From the NCBI GenBank assembly GCA_030681475.1, contig JAUXWT010000071.1:33347-97346 (forward strand): a stretch of 64,000 nucleotides of DNA, in the 5' to 3' direction. Positions 17,736-45,397 of this stretch are shown here, piece after piece (the stretch's first letter is position 1; the number at the start of each line of letters is the position of its first letter). The stretch comes from Bacteroidales bacterium (GTDB taxonomy: Bacteria; Bacteroidota; Bacteroidia; Bacteroidales; FEN-979). The notes beneath the pieces are model-generated. The model searched no databases. It saw only the letters and a program-made list of their open reading frames with translations, and had not been told where the DNA came from. A program made the translations under genes and the position numbers.

Positions 17736-18209
17736 TTAATAGAGGGTTTTGTCCGTTTTTTCGGTCCACTCTTTAAACAGTTCAAGTGCCAACGGGTTAT
17801 CAATCTGCCGGAAACTGATTTTTCTTTGTTCCGGAAGAAGGTTCAATTCTTCGTAGATGTGATAGTCTTTAAATCCAATTGATGCGGCATCGTGGCGTGT
17901 TGAACAATAATAAACCGACTGTATGTTAGCCCAATAAATTGCAGAAAGACACATTGGGCAAGGTTCGCAGGTTGCATATAGGATGGCTCCGGTGAGGTCG
18001 AAATTCCCGATTTTCCGGCATGCCTCCCTGATGGCGACGATTTCGGCATGTGCAGTCGGATCATTCTGCGAACTGACCTGGTTTCCACCTTTCCCAATGA
18101 CTTTTCCATTCATCACGACAATGGCGCCAAAGGGTCCGCCAACATTGTTCCTAACTGTATAAAAAGCTTCATTGAATGCTTCGTTCAGGTAATTGTCAAC
18201 AACTTCCAT
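17736..18209 (-). CDS. guaD: guanine deaminase, cytidine-deaminase-fold type (B. subtilis GuaD-like)
   Basis: At 157 aa it is close to the ~156-aa B. subtilis GuaD. GGPFGAIVV..GK(V/I)IG.G.N.V....DPTAHAEI.AIREAC and the zinc motif CEPCPMCLSAIYWA, plus the C-terminal E..KTDKTLY tail, closely resemble GuaD as I recall it. It lies next to the purine-catabolic genes. Confidence 0.8.
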   Translation of the reverse strand: MEVVDNYLNEAFNEAFYTVRNNVGGPFGAIVVMNGKVIGKGGNQVSSQNDPTAHAEIVAIREACRKIGNFDLTGAILYATCEPCPMCLSAIYWANIQSVYYCSTRHDAASIGFKDYHIYEELNLLPEQRKISFRQIDNPLALELFKEWTEKTDKTLY

Positions 18210-18258
18210 CTCTGGTTTATTTATTAGATCATCATATTTTACATGGCCTTATCGGTTA

Positions 18259-18266
18259 CAAATTTA
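18259..18266 (-). promoter_or_regulatory. candidate -7 box TAAATTTG for guaD
   Basis: The minus-strand sequence gtTAAATTTGtaacc matches TAnnTTTG about 50 nt upstream of the guaD ATG (18209). Confidence 0.3.
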
Positions 18267-18351
18267 ACAGGTAAAATGGCTTGAAATACATTTCATGCAT
18301 GATCTTCCTCCTTTTTTGACATTTTCAGGGGCAATTCTCATGCTTTATCTC

Positions 18352-18359
18352 TAATTTTG
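18352..18359 (+). promoter_or_regulatory. candidate -7 box TAATTTTG for the ygfK operon
   Basis: It matches TAnnTTTG 33 nt upstream of the GTG start at 18392, in the divergent guaD/ygfK spacer. Confidence 0.3.
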
Positions 18360-18391
18360 GGGGCAGTATATTCACCTGAATTAATAAAAAA

Positions 18392-21300
18392 GTGTCAGGA
18401 AAATTTCATCCGATACCTCTTCCGGGCCTCTTAAGATTAACACTTGCCGAAATCAGTCAAAACAGATTTATGGGAATTCCCGGTAGTTTGTTCTACCGGC
18501 CGCACCCTACCGATCGTTTTGGATTTACGAGATATGGACGATACCTTGAAACGCCCATCGGAGTGGCTGCAGGGCCTCACACACAGTTGGCGCTTAACAT
18601 AGTTGCCGCCTGGCTTTGCGGTGCCCGGTATATTGAGTTAAAGACCGTCCAGACCCTGGATGAACTCGAAGTCTCAAAACCCTGCATCGACATGCAGGAC
18701 GAGGGTTACAACTGTGAGTGGTCCCAGGAACTTAAAGTGAATGAGTCCTTTGCTGAGTACCTCAACGCCTGGATCATCATCCATATCCTTCATATTGAAT
18801 TGGGATTCACCGGATCAGTGGGAACGCTTTTTAACATGAGTGTGGGGTACAACCTTGAGGGGATCATGAATGCCAATGTCCAATGGTTTTTTGACCGGAT
18901 GCTGGATTGTAGTACAGAACTGGATAAAGCGAGAGAATCCATCAGGGGGATTTACCCTGGTATTGATAAGATAGATATCCCATCGAAAATATCGGATCAT
19001 GTTACCTTGAGCACCATGCATGGATGTCCGCCCGACGAGATTGAAAGGATCGGGCTATATCTGATCAGCGAAAAGAAATTACATACCACAATTAAATTAA
19101 ATCCAACATTACTTGGACCGGAAGTAATTCGCGGGTTGCTGAACACCAGGTTTGGCTTTTCCACTGTAGTTCCTGACACCGCTTTTGAACATGACCTGAA
19201 ATATCCGGATGCAATACAGATCATTGAATCGCTGGGGTTGGCTTCAGATAAAAACGGATTACAGTTTGGCGTAAAGCTTACCAACACCCTGGAATGTAAA
19301 AACAATAAAAATATTTTCGGGGACGGGGAGACCATGATGTACATGAGCGGCCGGGCGCTACATCCCATAAGCGTATTGCTGGCAAGGAAAATGCAGAATG
19401 ACATGGGGGGCAGCCTTGATATCTCTTTTTCTGCAGGTGCGGATTGTTTTAACGTTGCCGATGTGCTGGACTGTGGTATGAGACCGGTGACCGTGTGCAG
19501 CGATTTGCTGAAGCCCGGCGGATACGGGCGTTTATTTCAATATATTGAAAACCTTCGTTCACACAACCAGGTCAACAAGTCAGCTCTGCAAAACCTGAAT
19601 AATTATGCTGACAGGGTTGTCGATAATCCGGGTTATTATAAGCATTTATTGTCCGATCCCTCTATCAAGACTTCAAGGGAACTTGGTTGGTTTGACTGTA
19701 TTCATGCTCCGTGTACAGATACCTGTCCGACAAATCAGGACATTCCGGAATATATGCATCATACAGCGCATGATGATATTCCCGCGGCATTTGATACAAT
19801 TTTCATGACCAATCCCTTTCCATCAGTTACAGGAATGGTATGCGACCATTTGTGTGAGTTGAAATGCACCCGGGTAAATTTTGACAATGCATTGCATATC
19901 AGAGAGATCAAGAGGTTTGTGGCGGAAAACACCCCACCCCCATCCCCACCCCCAAAAGGAGAGGGGCAAGTGGCCCGGGCAGCCATTATCGGGGCTGGCC
20001 CGGCTGGTTTATCCTGTGGATGGTACTTACGCAATGCTGGTTTTGAGGTGGATATCTTTGAACAGAAAAATGTTGCCGGGGGCATGGTTTCTGCAGCCAT
20101 TCCCTCATTCCGGCTTACCGGCGAGGCCATTGATAACGATATACAACGGATACTGGCATCAGGGATTCATCTGCATGATAATCAATATATTGACGCCGCA
20201 CGTTTTAAGCTGCTCCAACGTGATTACGACCTCATTTTCCTGGCTGCAGGCGCTCAACAATCAATCAGACTGAATATCGAAGGAATAGACTCAAGCGGGG
20301 TGATTGATCCGCTGGAGTTTTTATTTGATGTCAGGCAAAATAAGACAACCAGGTTGGGTCAGCACGTGATCATCATTGGAGGTGGGAATACAGCCATGGA
20401 TTCCGCCCGCACTGCATTCCGGATGGTAGGAAAAGAGGGGAGTGTCACCATCGTTTACCGTCGCACGGTTAAAGAAATGCCCGCCGATCATGGTGAGATC
20501 AAAGCAGTGCAGGAAGAGGGGATCCGTATCATTGAGCTAGCCAATCCCGTTCGTGTTCAATCGGTCGGGGGCAGGGTTACCGGACTGTTATGTTCACGCA
20601 ACATCCTGACCTTGAATGGAAATGATGACAGGCCCTCCCCACGCGCCATCCCTGGTTCCGAATTTGAAATTTCATGCGATACCATTATTCCGGCCATTGG
20701 CCAGCAGATGGCGGTTGATTTTCTTGAGCATGATCAACTTCGTCCGGTTCAGGGAAGTTATAAAACAGGAGTTCCCAAACTTTACATCGGCGGAGATGCC
20801 ATGCGTGGCGCCTCGACAGCAATCAATGCCATCGCCGACGGCCGCAAAGCCGCAGAAGAAATCATAGCACAAACGGCGCACCTGCTCCCCTCCCCTGCAA
20901 GGGGAGGGGTCGAGTGTGGGGTAGAAGATATCCCCCAACTGATGCATCGCAAAGCGATCAGGGAATATGGAATTCATCCGGCAGAAACCGCCCTGGACAG
21001 GAGAAGGAATTTCGATCTGGTCATGTCATCCTTTACAGCAGAACAGGCAAAGACAGAGGCAGCACGGTGTTTGCGATGTGATGTGATCTGCAACGTATGT
21101 GTCTCGGTTTGCCCGAACCTGGCCAACTTCGGATACCGGGTCGAACCAGTGCGTTATTCGCTGGAAAAGGCAGTTTTAAATGAGGATGGCTCCATCGTAA
21201 TAGAAAAGGATAAGGTTTTTAAGGTTGATCAGCCATTTCAGATCCTTAACATCCGTGATCTGTGCAATGAATGTGGTAATTGTACTACATTTTGCCCGAC

Positions 21301-21628
21301 CAGCGGCAGGCCATTCGCCGATAAGCCCGGTATATTTCTTTCTGTGAAATCGTTGAACGAAGTGGGTACAGGCTTTCTTTTTAGTCAGCTTCCGGGAAAA
21401 CAGGCGCTGATTTATAGGGACAAGGAGAGTGTAAAAACTTTGAGTTTGATGGATGACAAATATGTGTATGAGACAGACCAGGTCACAGCGGTTATCAATG
21501 CAAAAGATTTCGCACTGCTTGATGTAAAGTTTCTGACACCGTGTGTTAAAGAATTCCACTTTGAATTTGCTGCAGAAATGAGTATAATATTGAATGGTGC
21601 AATGCAAATAACAGTGAATATTGAATAA
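18392..21628 (+). CDS. ygfK: YgfK-type Fe-S/flavin oxidoreductase (annotated 'putative selenate reductase subunit YgfK'; DPD-like TIM barrel + GltD-like FAD/NAD(P) domain + 2x[4Fe-4S])
   Basis: The N-terminus PIPLPGLL...FMGIPGSLFY...ETPIGVAAGPHTQLALNIVAAWLCGARYIELKTVQTLDELEVSKPCIDMQDEGYNCEWSQE aligns with E. coli YgfK as I recall it. It carries AIIGAGPAGLSCG (GxGxxG), IIIGGGNTAMD, and the motifs CLRCDVICNVCVSVCPN and CNECGNCTTFCP. At 1078 aa it compares with about 1030 aa in E. coli. The start codon is GTG. Confidence 0.88.
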   Translation: MSGKFHPIPLPGLLRLTLAEISQNRFMGIPGSLFYRPHPTDRFGFTRYGRYLETPIGVAAGPHTQLALNIVAAWLCGARYIELKTVQTLDELEVSKPCIDMQDEGYNCEWSQELKVNESFAEYLNAWIIIHILHIELGFTGSVGTLFNMSVGYNLEGIMNANVQWFFDRMLDCSTELDKARESIRGIYPGIDKIDIPSKISDHVTLSTMHGCPPDEIERIGLYLISEKKLHTTIKLNPTLLGPEVIRGLLNTRFGFSTVVPDTAFEHDLKYPDAIQIIESLGLASDKNGLQFGVKLTNTLECKNNKNIFGDGETMMYMSGRALHPISVLLARKMQNDMGGSLDISFSAGADCFNVADVLDCGMRPVTVCSDLLKPGGYGRLFQYIENLRSHNQVNKSALQNLNNYADRVVDNPGYYKHLLSDPSIKTSRELGWFDCIHAPCTDTCPTNQDIPEYMHHTAHDDIPAAFDTIFMTNPFPSVTGMVCDHLCELKCTRVNFDNALHIREIKRFVAENTPPPSPPPKGEGQVARAAIIGAGPAGLSCGWYLRNAGFEVDIFEQKNVAGGMVSAAIPSFRLTGEAIDNDIQRILASGIHLHDNQYIDAARFKLLQRDYDLIFLAAGAQQSIRLNIEGIDSSGVIDPLEFLFDVRQNKTTRLGQHVIIIGGGNTAMDSARTAFRMVGKEGSVTIVYRRTVKEMPADHGEIKAVQEEGIRIIELANPVRVQSVGGRVTGLLCSRNILTLNGNDDRPSPRAIPGSEFEISCDTIIPAIGQQMAVDFLEHDQLRPVQGSYKTGVPKLYIGGDAMRGASTAINAIADGRKAAEEIIAQTAHLLPSPARGGVECGVEDIPQLMHRKAIREYGIHPAETALDRRRNFDLVMSSFTAEQAKTEAARCLRCDVICNVCVSVCPNLANFGYRVEPVRYSLEKAVLNEDGSIVIEKDKVFKVDQPFQILNIRDLCNECGNCTTFCPTSGRPFADKPGIFLSVKSLNEVGTGFLFSQLPGKQALIYRDKESVKTLSLMDDKYVYETDQVTAVINAKDFALLDVKFLTPCVKEFHFEFAAEMSIILNGAMQITVNIE
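19931..19973. repeat. GC-rich palindromic-element copy inserted in frame in ygfK (encodes TPPPSPPPKGEGQV)
   Basis: ACCCCACCCCCATCCCCACCCCCAAAAGGAGAGGGGCAAGTGG is related to the reverse complement of 20881-20925 and to the intergenic copy at 39048-39095. It lies immediately 5' of the GxGxxG codons. Confidence 0.6.
20881..20925. repeat. GC-rich palindromic-element copy inserted in frame in ygfK (encodes LLPSPARGGVECGV)
   Basis: The core CCCCTCCCC-TGCAA-GGGGAGGGG (20887-20909) is a perfect 9-bp GC stem. It is followed by TCGAGTGTGGGGTA, which resembles the TCAGGGGTTGAGGTA arm of the copy at 39048-39095. Confidence 0.65.
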
Positions 21629-21669
21629 AAAACATTGAAAAGTGAATAAATAACAGTGAATAGTTATGA
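21607..21669. repeat. 7-nt-period tandem array spanning the ygfK stop and the next ATG
   Basis: The units read aataaca gtgaata ttgaata aaaaaca ttgaaaa gtgaata aataaca gtgaata gttatga. The 14-mer AATAACAGTGAATA occurs twice (21607-21620 and 21649-21662). Confidence 0.6.
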
Positions 21670-23138
21670 TACCAATTATTAAGAATGTTGTTGATCAGGC
21701 AGTGCTGGAAAAGGCCATTGGCCATTACCGCGAAAAGGGAATCATCCTGCCGACTTTCGCCCAGATGCAAAACCCGGACCTAATTCCCGGTAGCATCAGG
21801 GATAGATTGAAGAACATCGGCCTGTGGGATCTTCATCCCCTGAATTTATTCAGGATAACCTGGAAAAATGAACCGAAGGCCTCCGGAGGATTATTTGGGG
21901 CGCCTAATTTTATTGTGTTGCCGAAGGAGCTCACCGGAATTGATACTCCCATCATTGTGATGCTTGGCAAATGGTTCCCGACCGGGGCACACAAGGTGGG
22001 CGCTGCCTATGGATGCCTGGCCCCCCGCATCATCACCGGTGGGTTCGATCCGACTTATCATAAAGCGGTATGGCCGTCAACCGGAAACTATTGCCGCGGT
22101 GGCGCCTTTGATTCCTATCTCATGGATGTAACCGCGGTGGCCATCCTTCCAGAGGAGATGAGCCGCGAACGGTTTGCCTGGCTTGAGGAGATCGGCGCCG
22201 AAGTGATCGCCACACCGGGTTGCGAGTCAAATGTGAAGGAGATATACGATAAATGCTGGGAGATCAGGCGTACACGGAAAGATTGTATCATTTTCAACCA
22301 GTTTGATGAATTTGGAAACTCATGCTGGCACCATGAAGTTACCGGTCATGCGATTGAAGAGGCGTTCAGGATGGTTGCGGGAAAGGATGCGCACTTGTCT
22401 GCCTATATTTCAGCAACCGGATCGGCGGGGACCATCGCTGCGGGAGATTATCTGCGAACCAAATTCCCCTCTATGAAAGTGGTTGCATCAGAGGCGCTGC
22501 AATGCCCCACACTGTTGATGAATGGTTTTGGCGGTCACCGGATCGAGGGGATCGGTGACAAGCATGTTCCATGGGTACACAACGTAAGGAATACCGATGT
22601 TGTTACGGCAATTGATGATGAAGATTGCATGCGGTTGCTGAGATTGTTCAATGAAAAAGCCGGACATGAATACCTTAAAGCCAATGGAGTTGATGGGGAG
22701 TTGGTGTCAATGTTATACACAATAGGCATTTCCGGGATCGGGAATATTTTATCAGCCATCAAAACCGCAAAACATTTTGAATTCACAAGTGAGGATATCA
22801 TGGTGACCATTGCCACAGATTCTGCCGAAATGTATGGCTCCAGAATTATGGAGCTGAACAGTGAACGCGGTTCCTATTCATCGATTCAGGCCGCACGGGA
22901 TCACGAGAAATGCATGTTGGGAAATGGTACTTCAAACATGAAAGAGCTCGGATACAGCGACCGGAAAGCAATTCATAACCTGAAATATTTCACCTGGATC
23001 GAACAGCAGGGAAAGGATGTGGAGGATTTACGCCAGTTGTGGGAGGATCGTCATATCTGGACGGAGATATTCAGCCAGCCTGCCCGCTGGGATGAACTGA
23101 TAAATGAATTCAATGAAAGAACTGGATTACTTAAATAA
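21666..23138 (+). CDS. fold-type-II PLP-dependent enzyme, long (490 aa) uncharacterised subfamily (cysteine synthase/Trp-synthase-beta superfamily)
   Basis: GKWFPTGAHKVGAAYGCL supplies a candidate PLP-Lys. WPSTGNYCRGGAFDS and SATGSAGTIAAGDYL (Gly-rich phosphate loop) are typical of the PALP fold. An extra ~120-aa C-terminal extension is present. The specific function is not recognisable. Confidence 0.6.
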   Translation: MIPIIKNVVDQAVLEKAIGHYREKGIILPTFAQMQNPDLIPGSIRDRLKNIGLWDLHPLNLFRITWKNEPKASGGLFGAPNFIVLPKELTGIDTPIIVMLGKWFPTGAHKVGAAYGCLAPRIITGGFDPTYHKAVWPSTGNYCRGGAFDSYLMDVTAVAILPEEMSRERFAWLEEIGAEVIATPGCESNVKEIYDKCWEIRRTRKDCIIFNQFDEFGNSCWHHEVTGHAIEEAFRMVAGKDAHLSAYISATGSAGTIAAGDYLRTKFPSMKVVASEALQCPTLLMNGFGGHRIEGIGDKHVPWVHNVRNTDVVTAIDDEDCMRLLRLFNEKAGHEYLKANGVDGELVSMLYTIGISGIGNILSAIKTAKHFEFTSEDIMVTIATDSAEMYGSRIMELNSERGSYSSIQAARDHEKCMLGNGTSNMKELGYSDRKAIHNLKYFTWIEQQGKDVEDLRQLWEDRHIWTEIFSQPARWDELINEFNERTGLLK

Positions 23139-23328: not shown

Positions 23329-24633
23329 ATGCCTGAAAAATTCCACTTTGAATGTGTAAACTGTAAAACTGAATATCCCGGCGACAAGGTCATCTATTTG
23401 TGTCCATCATGCGAAGCGTTGAACAAACCCGGCATTCCCCCGCAGGGTGTTCTGAAGACCATATACCCTTATGAAAAAATTCGCGGCTCAAATCCTGTGA
23501 ATAACCTTTTTGAACGGTTGCAGCGCGAACAGTTTCTTTCATTGCTGCCAATTAAAGGGATGAATTCATGGACTGGATTGCATGTCGGGGATACACCTTT
23601 ATACAAGGTGGACAAGTGGACAGGTGGGCAGGCGGACAGGCGGACAGACGGACAGGCGGACAGGCGGGGGGATGAGTTTGAGATTTACCTGAAAGATGAT
23701 TCGCAGAATCCAACATTTTCTTTTAAGGATCGAGCTTCAGCGCTTGTTTCGGCCTGGGCGCGTGAAAATGGAATAAAAACCCTGGTCGCTGCTTCCACCG
23801 GAAATGCTGGATCGTCACTCGCAGGTATTTGTGCATCACAGGGACAAAAGGCGATGATCGTCGTGCCTGCAGCGGCACCGCTGGCCAAACTTACACAGAT
23901 ACTCATGTATGGAGCAACGCTGGTTCCGGTCAGGGGTACTTATGATGATGCTTTCGACCTGAGCGTGCAGATCTCTGAAAAATATGGTTATTATAACCGG
24001 AATACAGCCTATAATCCACTTACCATTGAAGGCAAAAAGACAGTTTCATTCGAACTGTTCCACCAACTCGGAAACCAGGTTCCAGACCGGATCTTTATCC
24101 CGGTTGGGGATGGGGTCATCTTTTCCGGTGTTTGCAAGGGATTTGAAGATCTGCTGAAACTTGGGATCATCAGCCGGATGCCGGTTCTGGTAGCAGTTCA
24201 GGCGGAAGGGAGCAGCAACCTGATCAACAATTTGAAAAACGACTCATTCGATGTCAAGCCATCCAGGACAATTGCCGATTCTATTTCCGTGGATGCGCCC
24301 CGATGTTTCTTCCTGACACGTGACTATATTGAGAAATATCACGGGGAGTCTGTTTCAGTATCAGACCAGAAAATTTTGACGGCATCGCTTCATCTTTCTC
24401 ATTCAAGGGGAATATTTTCCGAACCTGCAGCGGTTGCAGCTTATGCCGGCATGTTGAAATATCGCGATCAGGGATTGATCCCGCCCGGTACAAAAAATGT
24501 GGTGTTGCTCACCGGAAGCGGACTGAAAGATCTGACCGCCGTTCAATCATCCATCCAAATACCGGAGGCTGTTGAGCCGGATATCCGATCGGTTGAAGCA
24601 ATTATCCAAAGGCATTTTTCACATAAATCCTGA
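23329..24633 (+). CDS. threonine-synthase-like PLP enzyme with N-terminal Zn-ribbon
   Basis: A CxxC...CxxC ribbon (CVNCKTEY...LCPSCEA) starts the protein. The PLP-Lys motif is NPTFSFKDRAS, followed by ASTGNAGSSLA. Length and order are typical of the ThrC family. It contains a low-complexity insert, GGQADRRTDGQADRRGDE. Confidence 0.7.
   Translation: MPEKFHFECVNCKTEYPGDKVIYLCPSCEALNKPGIPPQGVLKTIYPYEKIRGSNPVNNLFERLQREQFLSLLPIKGMNSWTGLHVGDTPLYKVDKWTGGQADRRTDGQADRRGDEFEIYLKDDSQNPTFSFKDRASALVSAWARENGIKTLVAASTGNAGSSLAGICASQGQKAMIVVPAAAPLAKLTQILMYGATLVPVRGTYDDAFDLSVQISEKYGYYNRNTAYNPLTIEGKKTVSFELFHQLGNQVPDRIFIPVGDGVIFSGVCKGFEDLLKLGIISRMPVLVAVQAEGSSNLINNLKNDSFDVKPSRTIADSISVDAPRCFFLTRDYIEKYHGESVSVSDQKILTASLHLSHSRGIFSEPAAVAAYAGMLKYRDQGLIPPGTKNVVLLTGSGLKDLTAVQSSIQIPEAVEPDIRSVEAIIQRHFSHKS
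23608..23671. repeat. 8 x 8-nt tandem repeat inside the ThrC-like CDS
   Basis: The units read GTGGACAA GTGGACAG GTGGGCAG GCGGACAG GCGGACAG ACGGACAG GCGGACAG GCGGGGGG. Confidence 0.85.
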
Positions 24634-27274: not shown

Positions 27275-27326
27275 ATGGCAACCACAACCTGTTCATCCTG
27301 TTTGGCCGGTTCCCAATAGCAATTTA

Positions 27327-30300
27327 TTAAGTTATCAATTCCTTAGTTTCGATCTCCGTATAAACGAGATCAATTTTTTGCTGAATTTCAATTGTCTTGG
27401 CAATGGAGGTGGCAATCTTACAATAGGTAGCCGGGTCGGTCATCTGCCTTCCCTTACGGTCTTTCAGATATTTTTCCAATACCTGGTAACCACCGATGTG
27501 ATAATTCCACATTTCCGGTTCAATACCCTCAAAATATTTTGTCGCGTTGATAAAAACGCATCTGTTCGCTTCATTGTAAACAGGCTTTACAATCAAATCC
27601 TCTCCAAGACCCTTATATTTTACTATCGGGTTATTCAATGATTTACTTTTGAGCAGGTGCAGTTGGGTCAGCTCTTCGCCCAATTCCGCCATCTGTAAAA
27701 ATAAGGTATGAATGCCGGTAAAAGGTACTCGCGGGAAATCAATTTTAAGGAACTCGGCATATTTCTCCCGGTAGATATTGCTGTATAACACTGAATAGCA
27801 GTAAAAAAGGATCTGCTCCGGGGTTGGTTTTTTCTTATATACTTTTTCCAATTGTTCAAAAACCACGGATGAAATATTTGGTTTCCTGCCTTCGCTCCCG
27901 TATTCCGTTTCAGACTCAAAAAGCATCATGCTTTGAAAACCGCCTTTCTTTTTCTTTTCTTCGGGTTTATAGAGGTATAGTGGTAAAAATAATTCACCAC
28001 CTCTGTAAAACAAGTTAAAGTCAATTATTTTATTTGAAATAAAAGCTAAGTTCCACAAATGATCATCTCCAACAACCTGACCTTGTCTTCCAATTGCCAA
28101 ACCAAGATTTTCTTTGAGCAGATGTTGCATGATAGCATGTTGGGGACTACTAAATAAACCCCGTGACATTCCTGTATAATAAGTAAAACGAATATCAAGA
28201 GGTCTGTATAAAACCCTTTTTAATAGTCCCTTTATTGGACCACTTTCTCTTATATCTTGTTGAGCATTTTCGACTTTCCAATCTCTACTATCTTTCCCCA
28301 ATGTGTATGCCTGGCGGGCAAATTCTGTATCAAATCTTGAGAATTGAGATAAACGATTCCATAATTCTATCGGCTCAAATCCTATTGTTAAGGAATCTCT
28401 CCCGGTGACAAAACCAACAGTATTCACCGGAAAAATTTCATTTACCCTCATCCAATTATTATAATGCTCAATATCTTTAGTATTTCGCCTAATGAAAAAA
28501 TACCAAGGGCTTTCGGGTTTCAGTTGTATGAAATCTTTCTTTTTCAGGCTGTGCTTATCCAGCCATATATATTTATTTTCCCGTTCGCCGAATAAATCAG
28601 AATGATAGATTTTACAACCCTTTGCTTTTTCTCTCTTTATGAAAAGGGCAATGGCGACGCCCTGTTGTATGTCAAACACGTTTTCATCCCTTGCCCCATT
28701 GGGGGAAGTCTCTTTTTTCAGGGAGTTACCGTGTAAATCCAGAATATAAATCTCATTGAAAGTATTCATTAAACTCTGCCTCATTCCCCGGAAAGTCGGA
28801 TTATCGAGATAGCTGTGGTTGGTAATCATTCCCACAACTCCCAGTCCGGCCTTGTGTATTTTCCATTGGGCAAATCGCAGAAATTTTACATAGTCGTCCT
28901 GTAGCCAAAGTTTTTTTTCTTCCAGCTTCTTGCCGTCAATTTCGTAATAACTTTGGGCGCCATCAATATTTGATTTTAACAATCGTTCAGTCCACTCGTT
29001 TTTATTCGCGGAGATACCACTGTACGGCGGATTCCCCATTATTACCAAAATTGACTCCTCCTTTTTTATTCTGCCTGCTTCATGACTTTCATCGCTCAGA
29101 CTTTCAAGGCCGGGGATTTGTGTCTGGCTAAGGTCCTCGATATCGAGCGTGTTGGTAAGATATAGTTTAAAACGCTCGTTGTCTTTCATTGTGTAACCCA
29201 GTTCTTCCAATAGAAAGCTCATTTTTATATGTCCGATTGCATAGGGAGCCATCATGAGCTCAAAAGCGTAAAAGTCCTTCAGGATGTGTTCACTCAGCAG
29301 TTTGTTCACTCCTCCTTCGCCATATTTGGCCGTGTATTCATGTACCGCCAGTTTTATAGCTTCTGCAGGAAAGGTGAGTGTTCCTCCGGCCGGATCCAAT
29401 AGGGTAACCTCTTTACTGGCTAATCCGTCGTTTAGGTTAAAACGAGTTTTTAAAATATCATGTACACTACGGACAATATAGCGTACCACCGGTTCGGGGG
29501 TATAATACACCCCCCTTTTTTCGCGTGTGGCAGGGTCGTATTCGCTCAGAAAAGTTTCGTAGAAATGTACAATGGGATCCTCGCCCTTGCCGGCTTTGAA
29601 ATACCCGTGTAGAATGTTCCTGACATCTGCGGCATTCAGCACTTCGGCAATGTCATCAACCATTACTTCCATGTGCTTGGGCAAATCGCCCTGAGAAATG
29701 AATTTGAACACATTCCGCAGAATGCCGATTGTTTTGGGAATCAGATCGTAAGCCAGCTTTCGGTTAAAGCCATTGGCGCTTCTGGTGCGCGCTGCGAAAA
29801 GGCCATAGGTGATGGTTTGTGAGAACAGATCGGCAAAATCTTTTTCGGTGAGATTGGCAATAAGGAATTTTTTAAACGTTTCGAAAAATCCATACAATTC
29901 ACCTTTTCCTTTTTGCTGTTGCTCCATCTCCACCGTGATCACCTCATCGCGCAAAAAGCGGGTCCGGATGGCAAGTTCTTTGCCTAATTGTTCGGCAGTA
30001 GTAACTTTCGGAAGTGAAAATGCAAAAAACTTTGAAAGCAGTACGGTGAATTTTGCTTCATTTTCAATTGGCGGGGGAATACCCTTCTTAGCCAGAGCAG
30101 AACGTGCAACAAAGGTTTTGTCAACCATCTCCCCTTTACGGTAGAGGCGGAATTCATAAAAATCGGTGAGAATTACATTCGGGAATGTTTTCAGATAACG
30201 CTTCAGTTGTTCCGATCGTTCAATTATATCAAGGTTTTCACCTGGTTTCTTTGCTTCAACATACCCGATGATGTTCTCTTTTCCGTCCCACACCCTGAAA

Positions 30301-30473: not shown

Positions 30474-30565
30474 AAATTGGAATTATGATGTGCACAAGTA
30501 AACAAAAGTAGTATTTTTATCAAATGGTTCATGACGGTTATACATGAAAAACCAATACTAAATAT

Positions 30566-31852: not shown

Positions 31853-33216
31853 AAAAGTTACTGATCCGGAATGGAAAACTTGTTGAGGCAGGCGGAAGTT
31901 CCATGGAAGACCTGGTGCTCGAGAATGGCATTATCGCGGCCCGCGGGAAGTTCGATGCTTCAACCCATCCTGGTTGCCGGAATATTGATGCTAATGGAAA
32001 ATATGTGATCCCGGGTGGATTTGATCCACATGTGCATTTCTCATTGCCTTCTCCGGCAGGTAAATCATGTGATGATTTCAAGTCTGGCAGCCAGGCTGCC
32101 CTGGCAGGAGGCACGACAAGTTTCATGGATTTTGTCACCCCGCGCCGGGGACAATCTTTAATGGAAGCCTTGCGCCTGCGCAGGGAAGAGGCTGCTGAAA
32201 GCCAGACCAGTTTCGGCCTTCACATGGGCATCAGTGAATGGAATCCGAAGGTGGCCGCTGAAGTTGTTCCTTTGATGGAGAAAGACAACATCCGGTCGTT
32301 CAAGGCCTACCTGGCCTATCGTGATTCAATCGGGATTGGTTATGAAGAGGTGTATGAGCTGATGCGGGTTGTTGGCCCGGCCGGCGGACTGGTGATGGTT
32401 CACTGTGAGGAGGGGGAGATGATCAGCCGGTTGCAAAGGCGATTTTTAAGTGAAGGCAAGACCCGTTCCACTTTTCACGCGTTATCCCGCCCGCCGGAGG
32501 CTGAAATTCGGGCTATAGAGAAGGTGATTGAAATATCGGCAAAAACAAACTGCCCGGCTTATATTGTTCACATCTCCACCGGAAGGGGCGCAGATTTGAT
32601 CGCTTCAGCCAAAAAGGATGGCCTCCGGGTCTATGGTGAAACCTGTCCGCACTACCTCCTGCTTGATGAATCCGTATATGATCCCTCATGCGATGACATG
32701 CAGATTCTTCCTTACATCCTGTCCCCGCCGATCCGCGTGAAAGATGACCAGGCCCGTCTCTGGGAAAGGCTGTCTGACGGCACCCTGGATGTGGTGGCCA
32801 CCGACCATTGTCCATTCAACCTTTATGGTCAAAAGGACCGGGGATTGGATGACTTTACCAAAATCCCCAACGGAGCAGGCAGTATCCGACACCGTTTGCA
32901 ATTGCTGTACACTTTTGGCGTACTGACCAGTAAAATAACGATCAATCAGTTTGTCAGCCTGACCTCCACCCGACCGGCTGAAATTTTCGGCATGGGTCAC
33001 CGGAAAGGGAAACTTCTCCCGGGTTGTGATGCCGATATTGTGATCTGGGATCCTGATTTTGAAACGACGATCACGATTGACACCAGCGTGTGCAGATGCG
33101 ATTCTGACGTCTTTGAAGGGTTTCATATCATGGGTCGCCCGGAAACAGTAATCATGAATGGTAAGATCATTGATCAGAGGTCAGGAAATCCTTTTAGCCT
33201 TCCGGTCAGCAAGTGA
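31834..33216 (+). CDS. hyuA: D-hydantoinase/dihydropyrimidinase (HyuA-like cyclic amidohydrolase)
   Basis: GGFDPHVHFSLP is the HxH motif and SFKAYLAY carries the carboxylated Lys. VHCEEGE, HISTGRG and VATDHCPF are also present. The protein is 460 aa and overlaps ssnA by 19 nt. Confidence 0.85.
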   Translation: MAKNEIEKLLIRNGKLVEAGGSSMEDLVLENGIIAARGKFDASTHPGCRNIDANGKYVIPGGFDPHVHFSLPSPAGKSCDDFKSGSQAALAGGTTSFMDFVTPRRGQSLMEALRLRREEAAESQTSFGLHMGISEWNPKVAAEVVPLMEKDNIRSFKAYLAYRDSIGIGYEEVYELMRVVGPAGGLVMVHCEEGEMISRLQRRFLSEGKTRSTFHALSRPPEAEIRAIEKVIEISAKTNCPAYIVHISTGRGADLIASAKKDGLRVYGETCPHYLLLDESVYDPSCDDMQILPYILSPPIRVKDDQARLWERLSDGTLDVVATDHCPFNLYGQKDRGLDDFTKIPNGAGSIRHRLQLLYTFGVLTSKITINQFVSLTSTRPAEIFGMGHRKGKLLPGCDADIVIWDPDFETTITIDTSVCRCDSDVFEGFHIMGRPETVIMNGKIIDQRSGNPFSLPVSK

Positions 33217-40030: not shown

Positions 40031-40108
40031 AAGTACTTCAGTTTAAACAATTGGTGAATTGAACTATCCGGCGGCAAAAATAAAAAAAAGAGAAAAAAAA
40101 GTAAAATT

Positions 40109-43100
40109 TTATAGATTTTTTTTCGAAGACCGGGAACTTCCCTTCCCTGTTTCAAAGCGTACGCTATTGACCTTCTCCACCGACATCAGAATTACCTCGC
40201 CGGTTGCCGGCAGTGAAAAATCGGGTTCTTTTTCATGATCATCCACGGCGGAAATGGCATCCTTGATGGCAAGCCATACTGATAATCCAAGCATGAAAGG
40301 AGGCTCCCCCACTGCTTTACTCCGGCGGATGGTACCGGCATTTGGCACATCCTGTAAAAACTCCACCCTGAAATCCGCCGGAATGTCATTGATCGTGGGA
40401 ATTTTATATGTGTCGGGAGAGTGGGTGAGCTGGTTGCCTTCTTTATCCCATTTTATCTCTTCGGTGGTGCACCAGCCCACACCCTGGATAAACCCACCTT
40501 CAACCTGACCTTTGTCAATTCCTTCGTTGAGGGATTCGCCAACATCATGAATGATGTCGGTTCGCAACAATTGGTGGGCGCCGGTCAGCGTGTCGATCAT
40601 CACTTCCGAAACGGCCATGCCATATGCATAATAGTAGAACGGGTGACCTTGCCCCGTTTCACGGTCAAAGTACAAACCGGGTGTTTTGTAGAATCCTGTT
40701 GCACTGAGGCTTACCTGGTTCAGGCGCGCCAGGTTGCAAAGCTGATCAAAACGGATCTTGCAGGAAGGATGCTCAATGTTAAGAACATGATTGTCATGGA
40801 ATACAATATTTTCATAGGAACAAATAACCTCCGGGTGCAGCTTTTCAAATTCTGTAATTGCAAGGTTGGCCAACCGCTCTTTAATGATGTCGATGGCGTT
40901 TTTCACCGCCATGCCATTGAGATCGCTGCCCGAGGAGGCGGCAGTGGGTGAGGTGTTCGGCACTTTGGAAGTATTCGTGGCATTCACCCTTACTTTTTCA
41001 GGGGACAGGCCAAGCTCTTCTGAGACGATGCGAAGTATTTTTGTATGGAGTCCTTGTCCCATTTCGGTCCCCCCATGATTGACCAGTACGGTCCCATCTG
41101 TATAAATGTTGACCAAAGCGCCAGCCTGGTTCAGAAAAGCAGTAGTAAATGAGATCCCGAATTTCACCGGGGTTAGGGCAAGTCCTTTCTTAGTGAATTC
41201 ATTTTCACGGTTGAACCGGTTGATCTCCAGCCTGCGGAGATGATAAGCTGAATCATCCACCAGTTTGCCGTACATTGTGAAAAGATGGTTGTTTTCAACA
41301 ATTTCGCCATAAGGGGTCAGGTTATGTTCATTTTGCCGGTAAAAGTTCATGTATCTTATTTCCGCAGCATCCTTTTTCAGGAACCGGGCGATCCGGTCAA
41401 TGGCGTTTTCGATGACAGCCATGCCCTGCGGACCGCCGAAGCCGCGGAAAGCCGTGTTGGATGGCAGGTTGGACATCCACACTTGTCCGGTTATTGAAAC
41501 GTTGGGCAGGTAATAGGCATTGTCGGCGTGAAGCATGGCCCGTTCGAGGATTGCCTGGGAAAGGTCGGTCGAGGAACCTGCATCTGCGTTTAGTTCCACC
41601 TTATATGCCACGATCAATCCGTTGTTATCAAACCCGATCTCATACCTGGAGAGGAAGCGATGCCGCTTTCCGGTCATGATCTGGTCGTCGTCGCGGAACA
41701 GGTGTATTTTTACCGGCCGTTTCGTGGCATTTGCCATCAGCGCGGCCCAGGCAGCCACATGGTTTCCCTGCGTCTCTTTGCCGCCGAAAGCTCCGCCCAT
41801 TCGTCTGACCTCAACTTCAACATCATTTTTTTGAATGCCAAGAACTTCTGCTACAATCGCCTGTGTTTCAGCAGGATTCTGGCTGGATGCATGCATCAGC
41901 ATCTCCTTTCCTTCGCCGGGAATGGCAAGTGCGGACTGCGTTTCAAGGTACCAGTGCTCCTGTGCCCCGGTGGTCAGTTCACCCTGGATCACATGCGGCG
42001 CACTTTTCATCGCATCATCCGGATTCCCCCGCTCGATTTTACGCGCAGGAGCGAGGCTGTTTTTCGCCTCTATCGCTGAATTGATATCGAGGATGGCGGG
42101 GAGCGGTTCATAATCAATGATGATGAGTTGCTCGGCTTTCAGGGCAGTCGCTTCGGTTTCAGCGGCAACCAGTGCAATGGCCTGACCGATGAAAGTGACC
42201 TCGTGATCAGCGAGACATGGTTCGTCATGAACCACGGGACCCATCTGGTTTTCGCCGGGAATATCCCTGGCAGTCAGGATACAATGCACCCCTGGAATTT
42301 TCAAAGCTTCCGAAATATCGATCCGCCTGATGAGGGCATGGGCGTGTTTGCTGTAAACCACTTTCCCGAATAATAATTGATTGTTAACCAGGATGTCTTC
42401 AACGAATACCGATTCCCCGGTAACATGCTTCACGGCGCTTTCGTGTGGCATGACATGAACTGTTTTCACAGTGTCTGTCATCCTGATTGGAACTGCAACC
42501 TTCTCGGGTTGAGGTGGTTTTGAAGTTTCAATAAAGAATTTCATCAATAAATTCCTGCCGGCGCTTTTCCTGTATGCTGCATCCGCACGGGCATCTGAAA
42601 TTGGGGTGAACTCATGTCCCAGCGTGAGCATCGCCTGCATGATCGATTCCTGTGTCCATGGTTTTCCGGTCAGCGCTTTTTCAGTTTTCACGGCACGTTT
42701 CGGTGTGGCGGCCAAACCTCCGAAGGCGAGAATGATCTCATGAACAATTCCTTGTTTTTCAGTCAGCCTGAAGGCAGCTCCGACGGTCGAGATATCCATA
42801 TCTTTCCGTTTTGATACCTTATAGGAATGAACAACTGTCCCGGTTTCGTATTTCGGGATGATAATTTCCGTGATCAACTCATGATCGCGCAGGTCTGTTT
42901 TTCGATAATCCAGAATAAAATCTTCCACCCGTATAATCCTTTCCGCATCCATGGAACGAACCCTTATTTTGGCCTGGTAAGCGATCAGCAGGGGCAGTGT
43001 GTCGCCAATGGGGGAGGCTGATGCAACATTTCCTCCCAGTGTGGCCACATTCCGGATCTGAAGGGAGCCGAAAACTTTGAGGATGTTAAACAGCGCAGGC

Positions 43101-43957
43101 ATCCGCTGATATGAATACCCCTTGAGCTGTTCGAGCGTGAGTCCGGCTCCGATGTGATAACTATCATGATCTTCCCGGAAAAAACGCAATTCTTCGACAG
43201 CAGAAAGATCGAGGATACTTTTCAGCGCCTCCTTTTTCTTGGTCTGGCGCAGGGCAACATCTGTTGCGCCTGTGATGACGATGGCATCCGGGTTCTCTTT
43301 TCGCAGCCGTAGGGCTTCAGAAATTGTAAAAGGTCTGAAATAAAATTGTTTCCCTGTTTTTATTTGAATTGTTTCCTGATCCTTATGGATCGAATTCAGC
43401 ATATCAACAGTGTTGGATTCATGGCCGGAAAAATGATCAGATTGAGTCTCTTTGCCAAGTTTTTCTGCTGCTTCCAGAATGGGTTGATAACCGGTGCAAC
43501 GGCAAAGATTGCCGGTAAGTGCATCATCCATGATTTCACGGGGTGGATTATGATGGTTTTTAAACAGCCCGAAAAGCGACATCACCACGCCCGGGGTACA
43601 GTAACCGCACTGGCTGCCATTCGACTCCACCATCATCTGCTGGACGGGGTGAAGCGCCTTTTTCCTGGTATCAGCAAGGTTTTCGATGGTGATCAGTTGT
43701 TTGCCATGGATCATCGGAAGAAAAACCAGACAGGAATCAATGGTACGGTAAACAAGTCTGCCCTGATCACCTGCTTCGGCAAGCACTACTGTGCAGGCGC
43801 CGCAATCCCCTTCGGCACATCCCTCTTTGACACCTTTATGCGAAGGAAGGGACCGAAGATAATTCAACACGGTTGTTGTGGGTGTTAATCCTGAAGATTC
43901 AGAAAATACAACATATTCAATGCGGTTATCAAGGACAAAACGGATGGTATCAGCCAT
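40109..43957 (-). CDS. xanthine dehydrogenase, single-chain [2Fe-2S]-FAD-Moco architecture (eukaryote-like fusion of XdhA+XdhB)
   Basis: GCAEGDCGACTV, CGYCTPG and CRCTGY mark the iron-sulfur domains. An FAD-binding/CODH-flavoprotein segment follows (ITGATDVAL...GGNVASASPIGD). The Moco domain has RMGGAFGGKETQ, AFRGFGGPQG and SKAVGEPP, the XDH catalytic Glu/Arg/Glu contexts. The start is assigned to the ATG at 43957 (MADTIRF), which overlaps the xdhC stop as ATGGCTGA. The listed start at 44002 is less likely. Confidence 0.88.
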   Translation of the reverse strand: MADTIRFVLDNRIEYVVFSESSGLTPTTTVLNYLRSLPSHKGVKEGCAEGDCGACTVVLAEAGDQGRLVYRTIDSCLVFLPMIHGKQLITIENLADTRKKALHPVQQMMVESNGSQCGYCTPGVVMSLFGLFKNHHNPPREIMDDALTGNLCRCTGYQPILEAAEKLGKETQSDHFSGHESNTVDMLNSIHKDQETIQIKTGKQFYFRPFTISEALRLRKENPDAIVITGATDVALRQTKKKEALKSILDLSAVEELRFFREDHDSYHIGAGLTLEQLKGYSYQRMPALFNILKVFGSLQIRNVATLGGNVASASPIGDTLPLLIAYQAKIRVRSMDAERIIRVEDFILDYRKTDLRDHELITEIIIPKYETGTVVHSYKVSKRKDMDISTVGAAFRLTEKQGIVHEIILAFGGLAATPKRAVKTEKALTGKPWTQESIMQAMLTLGHEFTPISDARADAAYRKSAGRNLLMKFFIETSKPPQPEKVAVPIRMTDTVKTVHVMPHESAVKHVTGESVFVEDILVNNQLLFGKVVYSKHAHALIRRIDISEALKIPGVHCILTARDIPGENQMGPVVHDEPCLADHEVTFIGQAIALVAAETEATALKAEQLIIIDYEPLPAILDINSAIEAKNSLAPARKIERGNPDDAMKSAPHVIQGELTTGAQEHWYLETQSALAIPGEGKEMLMHASSQNPAETQAIVAEVLGIQKNDVEVEVRRMGGAFGGKETQGNHVAAWAALMANATKRPVKIHLFRDDDQIMTGKRHRFLSRYEIGFDNNGLIVAYKVELNADAGSSTDLSQAILERAMLHADNAYYLPNVSITGQVWMSNLPSNTAFRGFGGPQGMAVIENAIDRIARFLKKDAAEIRYMNFYRQNEHNLTPYGEIVENNHLFTMYGKLVDDSAYHLRRLEINRFNRENEFTKKGLALTPVKFGISFTTAFLNQAGALVNIYTDGTVLVNHGGTEMGQGLHTKILRIVSEELGLSPEKVRVNATNTSKVPNTSPTAASSGSDLNGMAVKNAIDIIKERLANLAITEFEKLHPEVICSYENIVFHDNHVLNIEHPSCKIRFDQLCNLARLNQVSLSATGFYKTPGLYFDRETGQGHPFYYYAYGMAVSEVMIDTLTGAHQLLRTDIIHDVGESLNEGIDKGQVEGGFIQGVGWCTTEEIKWDKEGNQLTHSPDTYKIPTINDIPADFRVEFLQDVPNAGTIRRSKAVGEPPFMLGLSVWLAIKDAISAVDDHEKEPDFSLPATGEVILMSVEKVNSVRFETGKGSSRSSKKNL

Positions 43958-44744
43958 TTTTAATCGTGTTGTTTGTTTTCTTATCAGAAGTATTTCTGAC
44001 ATCGATAAGTTTTGCCAGGATGCTGATGGCGATTTCCTGCGGTGTTTCTGCGTTGAATTCTATGCCAATGGGCATGTCAATCCCTTCGAGTTCTTCCGGT
44101 GTAAGAATATCTTCTTCAAGAAACCTTTTTTTCAGCAGAGCCACCTTTTTACCGCTTCCGATCATTCCGATGTACGCGTGAGGTTTTCGGGCAACCACCG
44201 CCAGGATGTCCTCGTCATAAATGTGTTTTGGTGTCACGATGACGATAAAGGTGTTTTCATCAAAAACAACCTCTTCGATGCCTTGAAAATAATCCTTGTT
44301 GATGATATTGAATCCTGTAAATGCTTGATCCCTGAAGATTTCTTCGCGTGGATCGAACAGTGTGACTGAAAACTCCAGTTCCCTGGCAAATCCTGCCAGC
44401 GATTTTCCGATATGTCCGGCTCCGAAAATGAAAAGTTTATTAAGCGGATTCAGGGGTTCGATATATATCTCCATGGTCCCTCCGCAATGCATGTTCAGGT
44501 CTTTGTCGAGGTTGAAAGTGAATTTGGCAGGTTTTCCGGAGCCGATCAGTTGCACGGCCATTTGTGCCACTTCATGTTCAATGCTGCCTCCGCCGATACT
44601 GCCAAAAATGGTACTATCGGCATATACGATCATTTTGGCGCCGGTCTTGCGCGGCGTTGAACCTGTTGAGTCAATGACAATACATAATGCGGCAGGTTGC
44701 CGGTTATTGATGACCTCTTCTGTTTTTGCAAAAATCCGCTCCAT
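43950..44744 (-). CDS. xdhC: XdhC/CoxI-family Moco insertion/sulfuration chaperone
   Basis: The XdhC_CoxI N-domain shows TGSTPRKTGAKM and GSIGGG. The Rossmann-like C-domain shows IFGAGHIG. It lies immediately upstream of, and is translationally coupled to, XDH. Confidence 0.8.
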   Translation of the reverse strand: MERIFAKTEEVINNRQPAALCIVIDSTGSTPRKTGAKMIVYADSTIFGSIGGGSIEHEVAQMAVQLIGSGKPAKFTFNLDKDLNMHCGGTMEIYIEPLNPLNKLFIFGAGHIGKSLAGFARELEFSVTLFDPREEIFRDQAFTGFNIINKDYFQGIEEVVFDENTFIVIVTPKHIYDEDILAVVARKPHAYIGMIGSGKKVALLKKRFLEEDILTPEELEGIDMPIGIEFNAETPQEIAISILAKLIDVRNTSDKKTNNTIKNG

Positions 44745-44788
44745 GAAAATATCTTGTTTGGATCACTGACACTTCTTGGGGCGTAAAA

Positions 44789-45397
44789 TTACAATTTTTC
44801 ACCATAACGTGTCCAACGGATAAACTCATGGTAATCCGCAGGAGTGTTTATGTTCCAAAGGATCCGTTCATCAGGGAACGGGACTTCGACCCGCGTAAAG
44901 CGCTTGAGTTCCTGGCGGAAGTCAGGAATATCCTTCAGTTTACGAAAAAAATCAACCACGCCGCCCCCCAACAACATGGGGTGACCGCCACGACCTTTGC
45001 AGACCGGTACGGAATAATTGCCGGAAGACACCGATGCAAGCAGCAAGTCGAGCAGGGAGGGGGCAACGAAGAGGTTATCGATGTTCTGGATAAAGCAGAC
45101 TTTGCCTTCAGGGACCACTTTCAACCCGAGCTGGATCGACCATGAACGGCCCCTTTCCAGGTTCCTGTTCACGACCATGACCAGGTTTTTCTCATCGAAG
45201 CACGAGGTGTCAAACTGTTCATTCACCACCATCACAACAGGATTGCAGCCATGATCCAGGAAACTTTTTACCAGGTTACCGGCGAATGTCATCCCATGAC
45301 CATCGGGCAGCAATGCCTTGTCGCTGCCCATACGGCCTGAAATTCCCGCTGCCGGAATGATGGCTGAGAAGGATGGTTGCACGGGAGTTTTTTTCAA
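44789..45397 (-). CDS. mocA: MobA-like NTP transferase, probable molybdenum cofactor cytidylyltransferase (MocA/YgfJ-like)
   Basis: AIIPAAGISGRMGSDKALL is the MobA/MocA N-terminal motif. The protein is 202 aa, has a TTG start, and lies upstream of xdhC and XDH. Confidence 0.7.
   Translation of the reverse strand: MKKTPVQPSFSAIIPAAGISGRMGSDKALLPDGHGMTFAGNLVKSFLDHGCNPVVMVVNEQFDTSCFDEKNLVMVVNRNLERGRSWSIQLGLKVVPEGKVCFIQNIDNLFVAPSLLDLLLASVSSGNYSVPVCKGRGGHPMLLGGGVVDFFRKLKDIPDFRQELKRFTRVEVPFPDERILWNINTPADYHEFIRWTRYGEKL

Follow-up and report, generated by a model that had tools for sequence, protein, structure and literature searches.

A probable reductive purine and urate degradation cluster in Bacteroidales with a conserved pair of PLP enzymes as its candidate terminal step

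We analyzed a stretch of 64,000 nucleotides (the window) from contig JAUXWT010000071.1 of an uncultured Bacteroidales bacterium from freshwater, in which a purine gene set spans positions 17736-45397. This set probably represents the anaerobic, reductive pathway of purine and urate degradation via 2,8-dioxopurine in a Bacteroidales form, with two pyridoxal 5'-phosphate (PLP) enzymes, referred to here as PLP490 and PLP434, as the terminal step. Six enzymes belong to the families of this pathway, the gene order is conserved in relatives, and the PLP pair recurs in other phyla, in loci without ygeX. A prediction made earlier from the DNA sequence (the original prediction) had described a ygf/yge-type purine and urate catabolic set with altered membership; every gene that it named is an open reading frame (ORF) in this region, and its inventory is borne out, absences included.

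The pathway was solved biochemically in 2025 (Li et al., bioRxiv 10.1101/2025.05.19.654654; Liu et al., bioRxiv 10.1101/2025.04.24.650524), which puts the link to urate and purines, originally given as an association of the gene set, on firmer ground. Urate is converted to 2,8-dioxopurine by XdhD-YgfM in Escherichia coli and by a FAD-less, selenium-dependent 2,8-dioxopurine dehydrogenase (DOPDH; XdhAC) in Clostridium sporogenes. Reduction by YgfK and ring opening by SsnA and HyuA follow, after which YgeW (with the carbamate kinase YqeA) and YgeY strip the ureido groups. The last step in E. coli and Clostridia, from 2,3-diaminopropionate to pyruvate, is catalyzed by YgeX.

All substrates assigned here are inferred, and so are the part that the PLP pair plays and the source of electrons for the hydroxylase. 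Guanine would be converted to xanthine by a small guanine deaminase of the cytidine deaminase (CDA) type, and hypoxanthine and xanthine to urate by a fused XdhAB, which would be matured by XdhC and a MocA-like transferase. A FAD-less molybdenum hydroxylase of the TIGR03311 family may then yield 2,8-dioxopurine, which YgfK would dearomatize at the expense of NADPH. Ring opening by an SsnA-like amidohydrolase, followed by HyuA, would give 2,3-diureidopropionate. From this, YgeW is predicted to remove one ureido group by phosphorolysis, as carbamoyl phosphate, and YgeY to hydrolyze the second, leaving 2,3-diaminopropionate. In the place of YgeX, the fold-type-II enzymes PLP490 and PLP434 would convert this compound to pyruvate and ammonia, possibly by a racemase or D-specific step combined with β-elimination, or as a heteromer. 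A split between two enzymes is plausible because the intermediates of the pathway are (R)-configured, that is D (Liu et al. 2025), and YgeX, unusually, accepts both isomers (Li et al. 2025). The genes of the region are the following, with Moco denoting the molybdenum cofactor.

17736-18209, minus strand: guanine deaminase with a small CDA fold (Bacillus subtilis GuaD type), 157 aa, divergent from ygfK
18392-21628, plus strand: YgfK, the putative NADPH:2,8-dioxopurine oxidoreductase (DOPOR); longest ORF, the public call starting at 18470 (1052 aa)
21666-23138, plus strand: PLP490, PLP enzyme of CysK/CBS fold; Pfam PALP only
23329-24633, plus strand: PLP434, threonine-synthase-like PLP enzyme with an N-terminal four-cysteine zinc ribbon; TIGR00260
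24635-27274, plus strand: FAD-less hydroxylase with [2Fe-2S] and Moco; TIGR03311; public call of 879 aa, the longest ORF starting from a TTG at 24572
27327-30473, minus strand: Type IIG restriction enzyme-methyltransferase; PADLOC REase_MTase_IIG, 886.8 bits
30566-31852, plus strand: SsnA-like amidohydrolase; SsnA models are the best matches, below cut-off
31834-33216, plus strand: HyuA, D-hydantoinase/dihydropyrimidinase; TIGR02033
33181-34359, minus strand: YgeW, knotted carbamoyltransferase; NF005538
34454-35647, minus strand: YgeY, M20 hydrolase; NF009555
35713-40030, minus strand: DUF4340 protein and GldG/GldF/GldA-like ABC-2 module; Pfam DUF4340, Gld models below cut-off
40109-44002, minus strand: fused XdhA and XdhB xanthine dehydrogenase (XDH) with Fe-S, FAD and Moco parts, 1297 aa; TIGR02963 and TIGR02965
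43950-44744, minus strand: XdhC-family Moco insertion chaperone, 264 aa; Pfam XdhC_CoxI and XdhC_C
44789-45397, minus strand: MobA/MocA-like nucleotidyltransferase (Moco nucleotide addition); Pfam NTP_transf_3

Scores of NCBIfam hidden Markov models (HMMs), in bits, were judged against the curated family cut-offs, and E. coli proteins were compared by tblastn. YgfK, the reductase of the pathway, passes TIGR03315 over its full length (855.4 against 835.3) and is 35% identical to its E. coli counterpart over 1034 aa. The three downstream members of a reductive urate cluster are present as well: HyuA (TIGR02033, 463.6 against 393.25; 38% identity to the E. coli protein), YgeW (NF005538, 687.7 against 453; 70%) and YgeY (NF009555, 516.9 against 321; 52%). 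Of the four families whose scores the original prediction had named beforehand as its refuting check, YgfK, YgeW and YgeY thus exceed their cut-offs and SsnA does not. The SsnA-like protein reaches 369 against 444 and 328.9 against 455.5 with the SsnA models, a shortfall established for the window protein and not for other Bacteroidota members, and it is 33% identical to E. coli SsnA. Residues invariant between the two include H70, H72, H219, H221 and D307, and SsnA was the top family for the 30 aligned sequences scanned against NCBIfam, in an alignment that included E. coli SsnA.

The complete XDH expected from the original prediction is present, with both halves above cut-off (XdhA part, TIGR02963, 536.1 against 467; XdhB part, TIGR02965, 1022.1 against 849.5). 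Its putative maturation proteins fall short of theirs: the XdhC-family protein, which is 30% identical to part of E. coli YqeB, scores 139.1 against 161.6 with TIGR02964, and the MocA-like protein 83.2 against 186.45 with TIGR03310. No NCBIfam model reaches its cut-off with the guanine deaminase, which carries Pfam dCMP_cyt_deam_1 and matches PDB 1WKQ/1TIY (E=1.1e-41) with residues 6-154 on chain residues 13-161 of 164, a full-length likeness to GuaD that includes the C-terminal segment beyond the deaminase core. The name guaD given to it at first is right in that the protein resembles a guanine deaminase, though one of the B. subtilis CDA fold, as the 1WKQ match indicates, and not of the E. 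coli amidohydrolase type. Homologues hold the same position in three related loci (L013, L014 and L017; L numbers denote the loci fetched for comparison).

Compared with the E. coli K-12 cluster (ygeW-ygeX-ygeY-hyuA-yqeA ... ygfK-ssnA-ygfM-xdhD), the window shares YgfK, HyuA, YgeW and YgeY and also has an SsnA-like protein, a guanine deaminase function and a gene resembling mocA, and the chemistry would be the same as far as 2,3-diaminopropionate. It differs in the TIGR03311-type hydroxylase, which is not XdhD, in the CDA fold of the deaminase and in the two other PLP enzymes within the operon, and it lacks YgeX, YqeA, long-form YqeB, YqeC, YgfM and purine permeases. With E. coli queries, tblastn gave no match to YgeX (at E<=1e-5), YqeA, YqeC, YgfM, XanQ, GhxQ, UacT or SelD in the 64 kb, in keeping with the absences of ygeX, yqeA, ygfM, yqeC and purine permeases noted at the outset. 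The same holds for yqeB, as the long form is not in the window and the YqeB query meets only the short, 264-aa XdhC. Among the fetched loci, none contains a YgeX orthologue or a match to SelD or YqeC, and carbamate kinase (YqeA) is matched in L037 and L048 only.

The hydroxylase passes TIGR03311, the model for selenium-dependent xanthine dehydrogenase (842.7 against 830.45), and has no FAD domain. By family, as an Fe-S and Moco protein without FAD, it is a good candidate for the step from urate to 2,8-dioxopurine. The original label "XdhD-like" does not hold, as identity to E. coli XdhD is 24%, the XdhD model TIGR03313 gives 206.4 against 1101.9, and Glu606 (E606) of XdhD lies in an insertion that is absent here; residues equivalent to R880 and E1261 are kept. 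The enzyme would instead be a DOPDH of the Bacillota type, and C. sporogenes XdhAC, going by its published description, would be a member of TIGR03311. The C. sporogenes system resembles the window in that a FAD-less Fe-S and Moco hydroxylase lies beside YgfK, SsnA (an SsnA-like protein in the window), HyuA, YgeW and YgeY, while a separate XDH feeds urate. It differs in having YgeX, and the cluster-bearing strains of the library all had SelD and YqeB/YqeC, none of which the window shows. The description of the set as selenium-linked is therefore right for the family label, TIGR03311, and has no counterpart in a selenium gene of the window.

The NCBIfam name of TIGR03311 could also suit a cluster that degrades another N-heterocycle, or one that runs oxidatively with this enzyme acting as an additional xanthine dehydrogenase. 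Residues of the R880 and E1261 type are typical of xanthine-oxidizing enzymes, and the SsnA-like protein is divergent and below its cut-off. We nevertheless regard this explanation as improbable, since YgfK, HyuA, YgeW and YgeY pass equivalog cut-offs, with YgeW particularly close to its E. coli counterpart, the window already encodes another, complete XDH, and the C. sporogenes DOPDH is likewise an XDH-like, FAD-less Fe-S and Moco protein.

The genes for the PLP pair are core members of the cluster. A search with the SsnA-like protein gave 38 loci at 55-78% identity, onto which the window proteins were then mapped. All but two of them come from metagenome-assembled genomes (MAGs) labelled as Bacteroidota lineages (Bacteroidales, Lentimicrobiaceae, Draconibacterium, Flavobacteriaceae, Polaribacter, Saprospiraceae) or as unclassified "bacterium"; the remaining two are from one Omnitrophota and one Dissulfurispiraceae. 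Many relatives bear names of lake-water MAG series. The conserved order is ygfK-PLP490-PLP434-hydroxylase-ssnA(-hyuA), with ygeW-ygeY convergent to it and xdh-xdhC-mocA beyond. Where at least 7 kb are available upstream of ssnA (n=23), the hydroxylase is found in 22 loci, PLP434 in 20 and PLP490 in 19, and no other genes are kept as tightly beside those of YgfK, the hydroxylase and SsnA as the genes of the PLP pair. The clustering is not due to chance: dozens of related loci show this gene order. The original prediction had taken the two PLP enzymes for intercalated genes, a view that their retention in about 20 Bacteroidota MAG loci and in other phyla contradicts. A restriction-modification gene and an ABC module, which it had grouped with them, are both present, and their distribution across the relatives marks these two as the later inserts.

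The pairing extends to independent lineages beyond Bacteroidota, which supply the most telling evidence on it. L048, an Armatimonadota MAG, and L049 (both about 68-71% GC) encode a DOPDH-like protein (47-48% identity), an SsnA-like protein (39-40%), a luciferase-like reductase and two proteins resembling ornithine transcarbamylase (OTCase), together with a PLP490 homologue (PLP499, 48% identity) that lies beside a ThrC-like PLP enzyme with the signature "NGLTIEG", in which threonine replaces a ThrC arginine. HyuA of L049 is 38% identical to that of the window and 41% to that of E. coli; L048 contains a carbamate kinase that is 50% identical to E. coli YqeA, as well as an amidohydrolase truncated where the locus ends. 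Both loci are of the type that Li et al. (2025) noted for Chloroflexota, a variant with a luciferase-family (putative F420-dependent) reductase, alongside DOPDH- and SsnA-like proteins, and here with the PLP pair of the window. The window differs from this variant in having a full-length YgfK, YgeW and YgeY in place of two OTCase-like proteins, and no carbamate kinase, which L048 does have. A short YgfK-like protein accompanies the same two PLP types in L045 and L050. In L049 and L050 the genes of the pair overlap each other by 4 nt. The fetched loci L045, L048, L049 and L050 contain neither ygeX nor ygeY.

L045 (ENA ERZ25039454 contig_13168, 393-16811) is a high-GC (0.70) variant cluster. It encodes a DOPDH-like protein, a short SsnA-like protein, an M20/M28 peptidase, a CN_hydrolase of the β-ureidopropionase type, a 691-aa YgfK-like protein in which about one third of YgfK is missing, the PLP pair and a fused XDH with moaE/A/D. 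Carbamoyl groups would be removed by different enzymes there. We also considered L041, where a ThrC-like gene lies beside a PLP490 homologue with no purine genes, as support for the pairing and rejected it, because the ThrC-like protein there retains the ThrC arginine and is thus of a different kind. The annotation of the anaerobic protist Aduncisulcus paluster (Metamonada) includes a full-length homologue of PLP490 with 46% identity (P0245/P0391, GKT33050.1, GKT33049.1), which could reflect transfer of a bacterial gene or contamination.

The public names of the pair are "threonine synthase" and "cysteine synthase", and the best matches are indeed ThrC for PLP434 (PDB 2ZSJ, 6CGQ, 1UIM, 2D1F) and CysK for PLP490, with the PLP lysine and the Asn-loop kept. 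PLP490 does not qualify as CysK or CysM, scoring 95.7 against 350.95 with the cysK model and 90.5 against 344.15 with cysKM. In the alignment with cysteine synthase, the lysine of its "GAHKVG" motif falls on that of SVKDR, and "STGNY" on the "TSGNT" loop. Relative to the CysK core it carries about 80 extra residues at the N terminus and about 95 at the C terminus (about 180 in all), and motifs of these terminal segments (NLFRIxW, HNLKYFTWVEQ) are kept across phyla, even in homologues of 30-48% identity. The alignment behind the AlphaFold (AF2) model of PLP490 was shallow (78-100% identity). As the predicted local distance difference test (pLDDT) score of the model is just 65, the top Foldseek matches, CysK and β-cyanoalanine synthase, support the fold class only.

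PLP434 clears the threonine synthase model TIGR00260 marginally, by 4 bits (171.1 against 167.1), and stays below the cut-off of five other ThrC models (for example PRK08197, 217.4 against 303). Where the three solved ThrC sequences read NP[YH]R[IL]EGQKT and PVGNAGN, PLP434 has NPLTIEGKKT and PVGDGVI, and so lacks the arginine of NPxR[IL]EGQKT and the asparagines of PVGNAGN. The Thr-for-Arg exchange is invariant in 22 orthologues and is also found in the distant partners from L045 and L048-L050. We presume that these sites contact the phosphate group in ThrC; as literature searches gave no confirmation of this role, the argument rests on the alignment to the three solved sequences.

If the two genes were ordinary biosynthetic threonine and cysteine synthase genes that merely lie inside the cluster, the public names and the TIGR00260 score of PLP434 would be accounted for. 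Of all explanations we consider this the least likely, and very improbable: the synteny with urate genes is kept in about 20 Bacteroidota loci and in other phyla, PLP434 has lost the Arg and Asn residues of the solved ThrC sequences, PLP490 has its extra residues and a cysK score far below cut-off, and NCBIfam scans of the window gave no thrA, thrB, cysE or other biosynthetic neighbours.

Neither protein is an orthologue of YgeX, the similarity being at the level of the fold. PLP434 aligns with E. coli YgeX at 25% identity over 127 aa only and PLP490 over a 46-residue patch, and YgeX is not among the 60 PDB sequence matches listed for PLP490 or PLP434. YgeX resembles the pair in being a fold-type-II PLP enzyme, in falling with PLP490 and PLP434 under Pfam PF00291 and in its position at the end of the pathway, which the pair would share; it differs in being one protein where there are two here.

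Our tentative proposal, which we put forward as a possibility with considerable doubt, is that PLP490 and PLP434 are two new PLP families that form an obligate pair, possibly a heteromer, and serve as an alternative terminal module instead of YgeX in Bacteroidota, Armatimonadota and other lineages. In its boldest forms the pair would combine D-to-L conversion with β-replacement to serine or cysteine, or would supply sulfur or selenium to the molybdenum center.

A β-replacement on 2,3-diaminopropionate or ureido-alanine would lead to serine, cysteine or another β-substituted alanine, and the carbon would be assimilated. The fold and active-site loops of PLP490 are those of β-substituted-alanine synthases (CysK, CBS, β-cyanoalanine synthase), and PLP434 is ThrC-like, from a family that adds water after elimination. 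The lake-water names of the relatives would also fit, on the assumption that the waters are anoxic and sulfidic. However, the characterized pathways end in pyruvate, which feeds fermentation, and no conserved gene that could supply a second substrate lies beside the PLP pair. On balance we think β-replacement unlikely.

Maturation of the molybdenum hydroxylases is a further candidate role, in which the pair would provide sulfide or selenide for the terminal Mo ligand and replace the SelD/YqeB/YqeC trait, which neither the window nor the fetched loci contain. The tightest linkage of the pair is to the hydroxylase, YgfK and SsnA, and it persists in loci without adjacent hyuA, ygeW and ygeY (L022, L026, L027, L030, L031). 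A PLP490 homologue adjoins moaA in L046, and moaE, moaA and moaD lie near one in L045. Neither selD nor yqeC occurs in any fetched locus, and some enzymes of the CysK family release H2S (PDB 5XEM match). Against this, XdhC is already in the window, and the pair adjoins carbamoyltransferases (L048, L049) and carbamate kinase (L048), which are downstream enzymes. The clusters would otherwise be left without any enzyme for the diaminopropionate step. The Moco sulfurases known to us are, moreover, fold-type-I, NifS-like proteins, which also weighs against such a role. We therefore hold a maturation function to be quite unlikely.

The assignment of the window to reductive urate degradation, with the PLP pair as its last step, has to be weighed against several points. 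The function of the pair is assigned through guilt by association, the AF2 model of PLP490 is poor, and more distant homologues of PLP490 (31-41% identity) are found away from purine clusters, be it beside moaA, beside F420-biosynthesis genes or with no related genes near. The organisms are known only as MAGs. SsnA, XdhC and MocA lie under the trusted cut-offs, though each family is the best match. The opposite-strand restriction gene splits an operon that is single in most relatives, and could impair the expression of ssnA and hyuA. Finally, the 64 kb contain no carbamate kinase, no purine or urate permease, no FAD subunit or other electron-transfer partner, and neither selD nor yqeC, so that the pathway is not demonstrably complete from the window.

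The Type IIG gene (Pfam Type_ISP_C, N6_Mtase, Eco57I) has a GC content of 0.411, compared with 0.48-0.51 in its neighbours, and is found among the relatives in L005 and L007 only. It is a low-GC insertion that splits the ygfK...hyuA operon and not a member of the pathway. The junction between the hydroxylase and ssnA genes (27275-30565 in the window) is a recurrent insertion site of defence-type genes in relatives, and resembles a defence hotspot within a catabolic operon. Inserts were located at 4178-9572 in L005, 7536-9194 in L008, 5179-9325 in L028 and about 7300-9950 in L022 and L027. They comprise Type IIG restriction-modification genes (window, L005, L007), an AAA_15/AAA_21 ATPase (L005), a BpuJI-type endonuclease with two DNA methylases (L028), a Schlafen/AlbA_2 protein (L008) and a DUF1016/YhcG PDDEXK nuclease (L022, L027).

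The ABC-2/DUF4340 module is a lineage-specific insert between ygeY and xdh and probably lies outside the pathway. Among the relatives it is found only in the closest ones (L001, L002, L003 and L012), while in L004, L006, L011, L013, L017 and L035 ygeY is followed by xdh without it. Its proteins remain below the Gld equivalog cut-offs (GldA, 387.8 against 402.6; GldF, 216.6 against 288.5; GldG, 262.6 against 389.85). ABC-2 modules of this kind are of the exporter type. That the module might be the missing purine transporter was considered and rejected, as the module is confined to the four closest relatives and has no adjacent gene for a solute-binding protein.

Two further genes were seen downstream of ssnA in more distant Bacteroidota loci. 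A PPK2-family polyphosphate kinase (TIGR03709, 324.8 against 247.2) occurs in four of them (L020, 6372-7256; L023, 10302-11183; L029, 10444-11337; L036, 11717-12607), within about 250 bp of ssnA in L020 and L023 and several kb away in L029 and L036. These four clusters have no adjacent carbamate kinase. A conserved ORF of about 210 aa without a Pfam or NCBIfam match (L024, 11330-11971; homologues in L020, L028, L030, L031 and L038) lies downstream of ssnA in five of six distant loci, directly after it in L024, L028 and L030 and about 9 kb away in L031. Within the window itself, hyuA and ygeW are convergent and overlap by 36 bp at their 3' ends (33181-33216), which leaves no room for a terminator between them. 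A 165-aa ORF without a family match (30470-30967, minus strand), opposite the 5' end of ssnA, is probably no gene.

The flanks of the cluster agree with the Bacteroidota context that the original prediction had proposed. The window contains a Bacteroidetes-type extracytoplasmic function (ECF) sigma factor gene with FecR and SusC-like genes, giant proteins with tails of the type IX secretion system (T9SS), and a leucine-type acyl-CoA catabolic set. PLP490 and PLP434 are 100% identical to proteins labelled "MAG: Bacteroidales bacterium" on a 244-kb contig, and a Logan assembly of SRR13727517 also encodes both. Directly upstream of the purine cluster, 8945-17687 encodes two very large secreted proteins (1721 and 1187 aa) with T9SS Por_Secre_tail sorting domains and Kelch/β-propeller, β-helix and cohesin domains. 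On the minus strand, 54946-62579 resembles a gene set for leucine/isovalerate catabolism and includes an acyl-CoA dehydrogenase, two proteins like hydroxymethylglutaryl-CoA (HMG-CoA) lyase, a biotin carboxylase with biotin carboxyl carrier protein (BCCP), an enoyl-CoA hydratase and a carboxyltransferase. An Rfam scan of the window gave no riboswitch and no other RNA family.

While the pathway itself is known, the Bacteroidota version and a non-orthologous, two-enzyme replacement of YgeX shared with other phyla would be new; our literature searches found no description of either. The published SsnA similarity network covers six phyla, and Bacteroidota is not among them (Li et al. 2025), likely because its members fall below the family cut-off, as seen for the window protein only. 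The same authors scored "YgeX" in gene neighbourhoods by PF00291 alone, a criterion under which proteins of the PLP490 and PLP434 type would have counted as YgeX. The text supplements of Liu et al. (2025), as far as they were accessible, hold no Bacteroidota entries, and gut Bacteroidetes have been reported not to consume urate. A preprint on uricolysis by Prevotella copri was set aside as unrelated, since according to it that species has no known urate genes.

Environmental Bacteroidales, mostly from lake water, carry a complete-looking version of a pathway that is being pursued for urate-lowering probiotics. Its terminal enzyme would not be universal, as a conserved PLP pair appears to replace YgeX in at least three lineages, and misannotation as threonine or cysteine synthase probably affects thousands of metagenomic proteins. 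If the pair were to supply sulfur or selenium to the Mo center, the pathway would be independent of the SelD/YqeB/YqeC trait. If the proposed terminal role is correct, the pair would represent a new enzymatic solution for the turnover of diaminopropionate and would provide better markers for purine degraders in metagenomes.

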